A DNA stretch of 49,897 nt, taken from UHGV virus genome UHGV-0143838; one strand, given 5' to 3'. This DNA is from a virus. The position numbers and the translations under genes are program-made. A model generated the notes under the pieces. That model was not told where the DNA came from, did not search any database, and saw only the letters and a list, made by a program, of their open reading frames with translations. Shown one piece after another: positions 42,850 to 43,576 of this stretch (positions are counted from its first letter, which is position 1; each line of letters starts with the position of its first letter).

Positions 42850-42861
42850 CGCCAGAAGGCG
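42850..42861 (-). terminator. weak terminator hairpin after the 202-aa cargo gene
   Basis: CGCC-agaa-GGCG stem followed on the minus strand by a U6 tract. Confidence 0.35.
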
Positions 42862-42862
42862 G

Positions 42863-43471
42863 CTATAAAATGTGCTCTAGAATCCGCATATTTCCTTCAA
42901 AAAGTATTTCCTTTTTTAACGGATCAACTATTTCACCACTCCAATATTTATGAGCTTTTTCTAAGGCAATATCATACGGTATATCGTCATTCATCAAATG
43001 TTCATCACTCGCCTCATGTATAACTCCATCCAACTCAACTCTGAACACAGTCTGATTGTCCCCCAATCCCAACTGCGAAATCCAATAGTGAAGACTTTCT
43101 TCACCTTGTGAAACCCATAAGCATTTCTGTCTTGAAGGCTTTTTTGGGTAATATTCAACTCGAACGGCTTCCCAAATCAGTTCTCTAGTATATTTACAAA
43201 AATGCATAGCCAATTCTTGACCAACTGCCGCTATATCCTGTACAGAACACTTAGTAGTAAGTGACCCTGTCTTTAGGCCATAAAGCCACTGCATTCTCGT
43301 ATAGTCAGTTAGATGCCCGTTAACATTTACTGGTATTGGAGGGATGTTTGAACTTAAGAAATAATTAAAAAAGGGATTTGGGAATGAGGTGCTAGCTAAA
43401 TCTCCTACTGCCAAAGGCCTATACTTAACCCAAGGATTTTGCGATTTAGTTGCTATGTAAAAATAGTCCAT
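42863..43471 (-). CDS. hypothetical protein (cargo gene between lysis cassette and HNH/terminase)
   Basis: 202 aa; AT-rich relative to flanking genes; two CTTACCACTATA direct repeats 6 and 28 nt upstream of the ATG; no recognised family. Confidence 0.55.
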   Translation of the reverse strand: MDYFYIATKSQNPWVKYRPLAVGDLASTSFPNPFFNYFLSSNIPPIPVNVNGHLTDYTRMQWLYGLKTGSLTTKCSVQDIAAVGQELAMHFCKYTRELIWEAVRVEYYPKKPSRQKCLWVSQGEESLHYWISQLGLGDNQTVFRVELDGVIHEASDEHLMNDDIPYDIALEKAHKYWSGEIVDPLKKEILFEGNMRILEHIL

Positions 43472-43576
43472 GCGTACTTACCACTATAAAAAAGACACCT
43501 TACCACTATATTTTACACAAGCAACCAACATTTAGCAGCACCTATTCGCAATAACTATTTATTCCAGCAAAAGAGT

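Follow-up and report, generated by a model that had tools for sequence, protein, structure and literature searches.

The founding structure of the Pfam family DUF2441 is that of BC2332 from Bacillus cereus (PDB 2AUA), a protein encoded on the chromosome of a Firmicute. Pfam places the family in the ADP-ribosyltransferase (ART) clan (PMC7955679), SCOP lists a 'BC2332-like' ADP-ribosylation family (PMC3000352), and in a structural-genomics survey using ProFunc the active-site templates of 2AUA matched three toxins, namely diphtheria toxin, cholix toxin and exotoxin A (PMC3024214). The family is large and a structure of one member has been available since 2005; its function has never been addressed experimentally. 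Described here is a DUF2441 gene of UHGV virus genome UHGV-0143838, of which the whole stretch of 49,897 nucleotides was analysed and is referred to as the window. In contrast to the chromosomal BC2332 gene, it is a cargo of a prophage late operon, located between the spanin genes Rz/Rz1 and the packaging genes of an SfV/HK97-like lambdoid Escherichia coli prophage. The gene forms a moron-type cassette that occupies a variable slot, an arrangement that fits the classic moron layout. We consider it moderately probable that the cassette, made up of a single gene preceded by a weak promoter and followed by an intrinsic terminator, was horizontally acquired, is expressed both in the lysogen and late in infection, and encodes a NAD-using interference protein.

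The closest described occupants of the slot are lambda bor and E. coli iss, which lie in the same variable position between Rz and the packaging genes and likewise form an AT-rich separate expression unit. They run antisense to the late operon and specify a small lipoprotein of the outer membrane, whereas the gene described here always points in the direction of the late operon and its product is a cytoplasmic protein with an enzyme fold. Tai (tail assembly inhibition) prophage defence genes, such as phi80 orf63, mostly lie upstream of the packaging module, with constitutive expression in lysogens (PMC11364771), and their position provides a precedent for a prophage defence role at this slot. 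Like the DUF2441 gene, Tai morons are single genes of lambdoid prophages; the two are unrelated in sequence and in fold, and Tai proteins bind tail proteins and are paired with a late-operon counter-defence gene, of which no equivalent is seen beside the gene described here.

The open reading frame (ORF) of 202 codons starts with an ATG at position 43471, ends with a TAG stop and is read from the minus strand (Table 1). The first-pass annotation, made from the letters of the sequence, had left its function unassigned and had proposed a homology and structure search, which sharpens the description to a DUF2441/BC2332-like protein of ART fold. The translation matches Pfam DUF2441 (PF10386) with 44.2 bits against a gathering cutoff of 25 (E 2.5e-11), and it belongs to PHROG 9842, a family with no assigned function; all 46 of 46 diverse relatives likewise match DUF2441 and no other Pfam family. 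Among solved structures it matches one, BC2332, with an E-value of 3e-9 for the single sequence and 9e-31 for the family profile. Exhaustive profile searching recovered 1,447 clusters at 50% identity from several bacterial phyla, nearly all of them single-domain proteins of ~200 residues. A structural, lysis-accessory or packaging protein, the first two of which the annotation had named as speaking against a cargo gene, was ruled out: no such Pfam domain is present, no function is assigned to the PHROG and the family also occurs outside phages.

An AlphaFold2 model of the protein, built on 20 homologs, is confident (predicted local distance difference test score of 87.6), shares the 2AUA fold over its full length and has the split β-sheet characteristic of ARTs. 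The nearest characterised fold neighbour, by two methods, is the rifampin ADP-ribosyltransferase Arr (PDB 2HW2 and 9IAF), which is likewise small and of one domain, and stands alone without a partner protein. This likeness is at the superfamily level only, with ~10–13% identity over ~91 aligned residues, and DUF2441 proteins are ~60 residues longer than Arr, with a long, conserved charged helix (residues 77–107). Searches of 46 family members against the other ART families of Pfam gave no sequence cross-matches, and the link to ARTs therefore comes from structure and clan assignment only. The N-terminus, MDYFYIATKSQNPW, lacks a hydrophobic signal segment and makes up the first strand of the modelled core; no gene for a small secreted subunit adjoins the ORF, and the protein does not have the features of secreted AB-type ART toxins of the LT-II, cholera or pertussis type. 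The product is a cytoplasmic, single-domain, stand-alone DUF2441/BC2332-like protein of the ART superfamily fold.

Across 135 diverse family members, residues E97, E101, R104, W130, Y176 and W177 are invariant, S113, R114 and E188 are each kept in 134, and N32 is kept in 132; all ten are present in the protein described here. With respect to the ART catalytic motif (H-Y-E or R-S-E, on strands β1, β2 and β5), candidate residues are E188, at the start of a C-terminal strand, and R114, before a strand, and the His of strand β1 is a Tyr. Family-wide, this N-terminal His is found within the first strand in the motif hHI[ST], in 121 of the 130 sequences ungapped at this position; BC2332 retains it (YHIV, compared with FYIA here). 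Among the close homologs (alignment A1), Tyr occupies position 5 in 14 of 20, this protein included, and His in the remaining 6 of 20, with the other invariant residues unchanged in both the His and the Tyr lineages. Comparison with a 78%-identical allele gives nonsynonymous and synonymous divergences (dN and dS) of 0.13 and 1.5 and a dN/dS of ~0.09, indicating strong purifying selection on the gene. An 80%-identical E. coli allele (L014:4927-5534, GCA_012700625.1) has an in-frame stop at codon 14 (TGG to TAG), is annotated as a 177-residue protein with a downstream start, and is probably a pseudogene; the cargo seems dispensable in some lysogens.

Directly adjoining the ORF are Rz/Rz1 on one side and the HNH endonuclease gene on the other, followed downstream by genes for a P27-family small terminase subunit (TerS) and then the large terminase subunit (TerL). 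The order of late transcription, all on the minus strand, is the Q-like antiterminator, a 463-residue ATPase, holin, lysozyme, Rz/Rz1, the ORF, HNH and the terminases. As the first-pass annotation had stated, the ORF is AT-rich relative to this setting: its GC content is 0.379 (0.325 at third codon positions), compared with 0.50–0.59 for the neighbouring lysis and packaging genes (TerL 0.537, HNH 0.558, Rz 0.498). Also upheld is its placement of the gene in the position of bor, as iss/bor, in antisense orientation, fills the slot in an O157:H7 E. coli prophage with the same HNH/terminase backbone (L011). Two further E. coli prophages with this backbone hold a DUF6979 gene and a small ORF (L012) or two small hypothetical ORFs (L013) instead, and homology to the same-backbone prophages ends and resumes exactly at the HNH start codon, at 42791. 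The cassette thus shows three hallmarks of a moron, in the Hendrix/Juhala sense of a cargo unit that is autonomous within a phage operon: presence or absence with sharp boundaries, deviating base composition and a downstream terminator of its own.

The cassette was found in 50 of 5,426 complete E. coli genomes, among which its backbone flanks are frequent. Identity between the copies is 99% or higher, and many of the carriers are of sequence type 131. The prophage that carries the gene in clinical E. coli is clonal; when the identity cutoff was lowered to look for diverged E. coli copies, only the same 50 were returned. Close relatives (41–78% identity), recovered through exact-protein look-ups, IMG/VR, one genome scan and the sequenced inducible Cronobacter phage phiES15, are all in lambdoid prophages. 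In each of the 13 distinct prophage contexts inspected the gene runs in the direction of the late operon, and in 12 of them it follows the spanin genes and precedes the terminase. These 12 contexts vary in their lysis-gene families and in terminase type, which is HNH plus P27 TerS, Nu1/gpA, Hendrixvirinae TerS or DUF2280 TerS. In the remaining context, an IMG/VR contig (L050:4122-6586), the DUF2441 gene directly follows a Q-like antiterminator and precedes the endolysin gene, in the other cargo slot of the late operon. This Q-adjacent slot is the position of stx in Shiga-toxin phages.

More distant members of the family occur as singletons in heterogeneous neighbourhoods of Pseudoalteromonas, Nitrospira, Bacteroidota, Bacilli and Clostridia. 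When the four neighbours on either side were called and compared all against all by BLASTP for 25 diverse loci, neither a conserved partner nor an antitoxin was found; the only recurrent neighbour in these loci was a second DUF2441 gene, in a tandem pair of paralogs from a metagenome-assembled genome of an uncultured member of the Bacilli (L025:5719-6938). A few distant members adjoin type I restriction–modification genes, AAA_15/AAA_21 ATPases or integrases. In Citrobacter sp. ANG330 (L017:3493-5618), a DUF2441 gene of 44% identity closely follows an AAA_15/AAA_21 (OLD/ABC-type) ATPase gene and an unannotated 240-residue ORF, a pair resembling two-gene anti-phage systems, and a related Phytobacter locus (L018) has an integrase fragment alongside. 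In Salmonella Typhimurium 14028S, the DUF2441 gene STM14_RS06850 is listed in an RNA sequencing table of differential expression, with a log2 fold change of 1.17 in a yhjC mutant (PMC9867438), and at least one family member is therefore transcribed in uninduced cultures.

The absence of a partner distinguishes DUF2441 from DarT/DarG, ParT/ParS, RES-Xre and MbcT/MbcA, all of which have an adjacent antitoxin. A known defence system was ruled out, as PADLOC gave no match and the NCBIfam models only noise.

Immediately after the stop codon is the hairpin with U-tract that the first-pass annotation had pointed out, here with a stem of 4 bp (42858–42861 pairing with 42850–42853), U6 at 42844–42849 and a folding energy of −6.6 kcal/mol. 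A hairpin and T-run follow the stop codon in 10 of 16 homologous loci, with compensatory changes in the stems (CCGCC/GGCGG, CCACC/GGTGG, AACCGCC/GGCGGTT) and energies of −10.6 to −12.8 kcal/mol in nine of them. Stems of 5–7 bp are at the same place in L005, L009, L016, L052, L053 and L014, and slightly further downstream in L006, L008 and L049. Judging from these stems, the hairpin in the window is a weakened version of the terminator of its homologs. A terminator within an antiterminated late operon makes sense only with transcripts that start locally, and we regard this as the best evidence for its being an autonomous unit. Beyond the terminator, the 36-nt non-coding block listed in Table 1 is conserved even though the downstream genes and packaging modules differ, and contains two short palindromic motifs. 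On the basis of the alignment it is probably the 3′ end of the transferred cassette; it may represent a cassette boundary, a recombination sequence or another site. No structured RNA was detected in or around the cassette, with no Rfam match at E up to 1.

Upstream of the gene, four alleles with saturated synonymous sites share the sequence TTGC, followed 16–17 nt on by TG[GT]TA..GT, a T-rich stretch and GGAAG located 6–7 nt before the ATG. The −10 positions are retained as TG[GT]TA..GT in L001, L046, L015 and L014, and the best-conserved −10 (TAAGGT) lies 25 nt before the ATG; the block reads as a putative extended −10 promoter with a leader of ~19 nt. In an IMG/VR prophage encoding a 100% identical protein (L044:4960-5000), the upstream region departs from that of the window in just two places: the putative −35 is TCGCTT rather than TTGCTT, and the T-run between the two 12-mer repeats described below is T5 rather than T6, which gives a spacing of 21 nt. 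An ATG with no obvious Shine–Dalgarno sequence had been remarked on by the first-pass annotation and is borne out: pairing of the 20 nt before the ATG with the anti-Shine–Dalgarno sequence amounts to −2.9 kcal/mol, compared with −6.4 to −9.3 kcal/mol for Rz, lysozyme, holin, the 463-residue ATPase and Q. The leaderless transcript proposed from this feature finds no support, given the distance of the −10 from the ATG, the GGAAG of sister alleles and the strong AAGGAGG ribosome-binding site of more distant homologs. A leaderless transcript starting from a proximal TATAGT was also ruled out, as that motif has no usable −35 and is not among the top promoter candidates.

Hugging the start codon are two exact copies of the 12-mer CTTACCACTATA, reported by the first-pass annotation and found in the sequence at the positions and 22-nt period it gave (Table 1); no further copy is present in the window, even at one mismatch. 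Exact 12-mers repeated within 40 nt number two in the window, against a mean of 0.21 in dinucleotide shuffles, of which 9.5% contain at least one. The repeat is real, only mildly beyond chance and no statistical outlier. The other such repeat, TTGTTTTTATTT at 15768 and 15803 (15768–15814), is T-rich and of low complexity. In alleles at 77–80% protein identity only TGG[TA]A is common to the two repeat positions and there is no 12-mer repeat; the duplication thus belongs to this allele and does not constitute a conserved control element. It is spread over the putative −10 and the ribosome-binding site, and probably only lowers translation. The proposal of dedicated regulation survives in part: a transcription unit of its own is plausible, given the conserved terminator and the promoter-like block, and the repeats are not conserved as a regulatory element. 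Much the same applies to the suggestion that expression does not come from late-operon read-through alone, as the separate unit is plausible and read-through, with every context co-oriented, is not to be dismissed.

In the scheme that we favour, low-level autonomous transcription in the lysogen would start from TTGCTT-16-TGgTAAGGT and end at the hairpin and U-run. Lytic growth would bring additional, high expression through Q-antiterminated read-through of the late operon, as suggested by the constant co-orientation of the gene within that operon. The most likely activity of the protein is binding of NAD+ with transfer or cleavage of ADP-ribose, a chemistry that would be centred on E188, R114 and Y176-W177. 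Its target is likely to be foreign or conditional, absent from or harmless in the uninfected host, because the gene has no antitoxin or immunity partner. Most probably it would serve the prophage by interfering with phages that compete with it or with other mobile elements.

Several observations weigh against this scheme. For DUF2441 proteins, literature searches turned up only classification mentions and no experimental study of any member. The family N-terminal His is replaced by Tyr at position 5 of the protein, and inactive PARP13, with a Y-Y-V triad, has Tyr at the analogous first position; catalysis is uncertain because of this resemblance. The putative promoter has a consensus score of 8.1 by position-weight matrix, inside the background (median 8.4), and a promoter scan of the window returned none on the minus strand. 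The hairpin, with its 4 bp only, is below the threshold of a terminator scan, and the 61-nt region around it folds no better than shuffled sequence (z −1.05). No family of the PADLOC-DB v2 defence hidden Markov models matched at E up to 1, and the association of distant DUF2441 members with defence islands is weak, as their neighbours are heterogeneous and include few restriction–modification, AAA_15/21 or integrase genes. Universal co-orientation and the gap of just 39 nt between the Rz gene and the DUF2441 gene in phiES15 fit a purely late function equally well.

Such a function is the leading alternative, possible although we assign it a rather low probability: an enzyme made late in the lytic cycle, mainly from the Q-antiterminated transcript and shortly ahead of packaging and lysis, which would ADP-ribosylate a host or defence protein in the course of host takeover or anti-defence, to the benefit of virion production or of the next infection, with no lysogenic conversion. 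Precedent comes from T4 Alt, ModA and ModB and the anti-CRISPR AcrIF11, phage-borne ARTs that modify host or defence proteins; these belong to different sequence families and genome positions, and are absent among the fold-search matches listed. The co-orientation extends across at least seven junction types and is not shared by iss/bor in the same slot, and the strong ribosome-binding sites of the distant homologs would suit high expression. A conserved terminator would be purposeless for a gene acting only within an antiterminated operon, however, and the conservation of the upstream promoter-like block and the spread of the family outside phages likewise speak against an exclusively late phage enzyme.

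Two other readings concern the protein itself, and both are improbable. An Arr-like transferase would modify a small molecule and thereby make the lysogen tolerant of a natural product, for instance an antibiotic or a toxin, as in classic lysogenic conversion and with no phage target; we rank it behind the late enzyme. Ranked next is a catalytically dead ART-fold binder, which could soak up or sense NAD+, ADP-ribose or a nucleotide signal, or could serve as a decoy for a protein of phage or host. It is suggested by the Tyr in 14 of the 20 close homologs, this allele included, and by the likeness of this Tyr to the first triad position of inactive PARP13. Speaking against a dead enzyme are the invariance of E188, R114, S113, Y176 and W177 in the Tyr as well as the His lineages, and the alternation of His and Tyr within one clade while constraint elsewhere is intact, as in the low dN/dS. 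The last and least likely reading takes the two 12-mers as paired operators, two helical turns apart, for a dedicated regulator. The exactness of the duplication, its 22-bp spacing, its position straddling the −10 and ribosome-binding-site region and its rarity in shuffled windows would agree with this, but the repeat is missing from the 77–80%-identity alleles, which keep the promoter block and GGAAG, a third copy is found nowhere in the window, the otherwise identical L044 has the shorter spacing, and the cassette has no regulator gene; we regard such operators as very unlikely.

Returning to the interference protein, a bolder generalisation, offered as speculation to which we give little weight, is that DUF2441 proteins would represent a new class of single-gene, antitoxin-free, NAD+-dependent late-operon effectors of lambdoid prophages, which would ADP-ribosylate some component of a competing phage or, while the prophage itself grows lytically, a host defence protein, and that the Tyr variant would keep its activity through a non-canonical ART active site formed by R114, E188 and Y176-W177. 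The existing annotation of the protein reads 'DUF2441 domain-containing protein' and the moron architecture is known, so this is not a new kind of system. The analysis does show that the enterobacterial DUF2441 branch is a stereotyped late-operon cargo of prophages, usually at the lysis–packaging junction shared with bor/iss and Tai genes. With one gene, no partner and a native cassette, it offers a cheap experimental entry to the family. If the protein is an active ART, a partner-free ART would join the prophage repertoire of defence or counter-defence; otherwise the cassette is an ordinary moron.

Table 1 Positions of the cassette, its sequence elements and selected late genes in the window
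Feature	Position	Strand	Remarks
DUF2441/BC2332-like ADP-ribosyltransferase-fold ORF, 202 residues	42863..43471	minus	WP_000384431.1
Entire variable cargo slot, HNH start codon to Rz stop codon, GC 0.381	42792..43576	minus	alternative cargos in same-backbone prophages
Putative −35, TTGCTT, 16 nt upstream of −10	43519..43524	minus	TTGC invariant in four diverged alleles
Putative extended −10, TGgTAAGGT (TG 43505-43504, hexamer TAAGGT 43502-43497)	43497..43505	minus	conserved positions
Distal 12-mer copy, TATAGTGGTAAG on the coding strand	43499..43510	minus	overlaps putative extended −10
Proximal 12-mer copy	43477..43488	minus	at ribosome-binding-site position; GGTAAG versus GGAAG in sister alleles
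Weak intrinsic-terminator-like hairpin, CGCC-UUCU-GGCG + U6	42844..42861	minus	1 nt after stop codon
Conserved non-coding 36-nt block after terminator, GTTGCCATCACCATGGACAAACATCATCGTGATGAT	42808..42843	minus	aligns with L005, L016, L053 and L014
HNH endonuclease	42441-42791	minus	PF01844
Rz / Rz1	43577-44044 / 43618-43824	minus	Pfam Phage_lysis
Q-like antiterminator	46484-47062	minus	

The other AT-rich cargo of the prophage is the gene for the 463-residue P-loop ATPase (44953–46344, minus strand, GC 0.398), located between the Q-like antiterminator and the holin. Its product has AAA_16/AAA_22 matches, weak ones to STAND and ORC/Cdc6-like proteins, and a match to phrog_6841, which has no assigned function; against the PADLOC and NCBIfam defence models it gave only noise-level matches. 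A two-gene system formed by this ATPase and the DUF2441 protein was ruled out, as none of the other DUF2441 prophages carries the ATPase between Q and holin. At the other end of the lysis genes, within the 3′ end of Rz and 5 nt before its stop codon, is a perfect 5-bp hairpin, GACAC-TCA-GTGTC (43585–43597, minus strand), while the spanin gene ends of the relatives carry a different hairpin, TGGCAG..CTGCCA.

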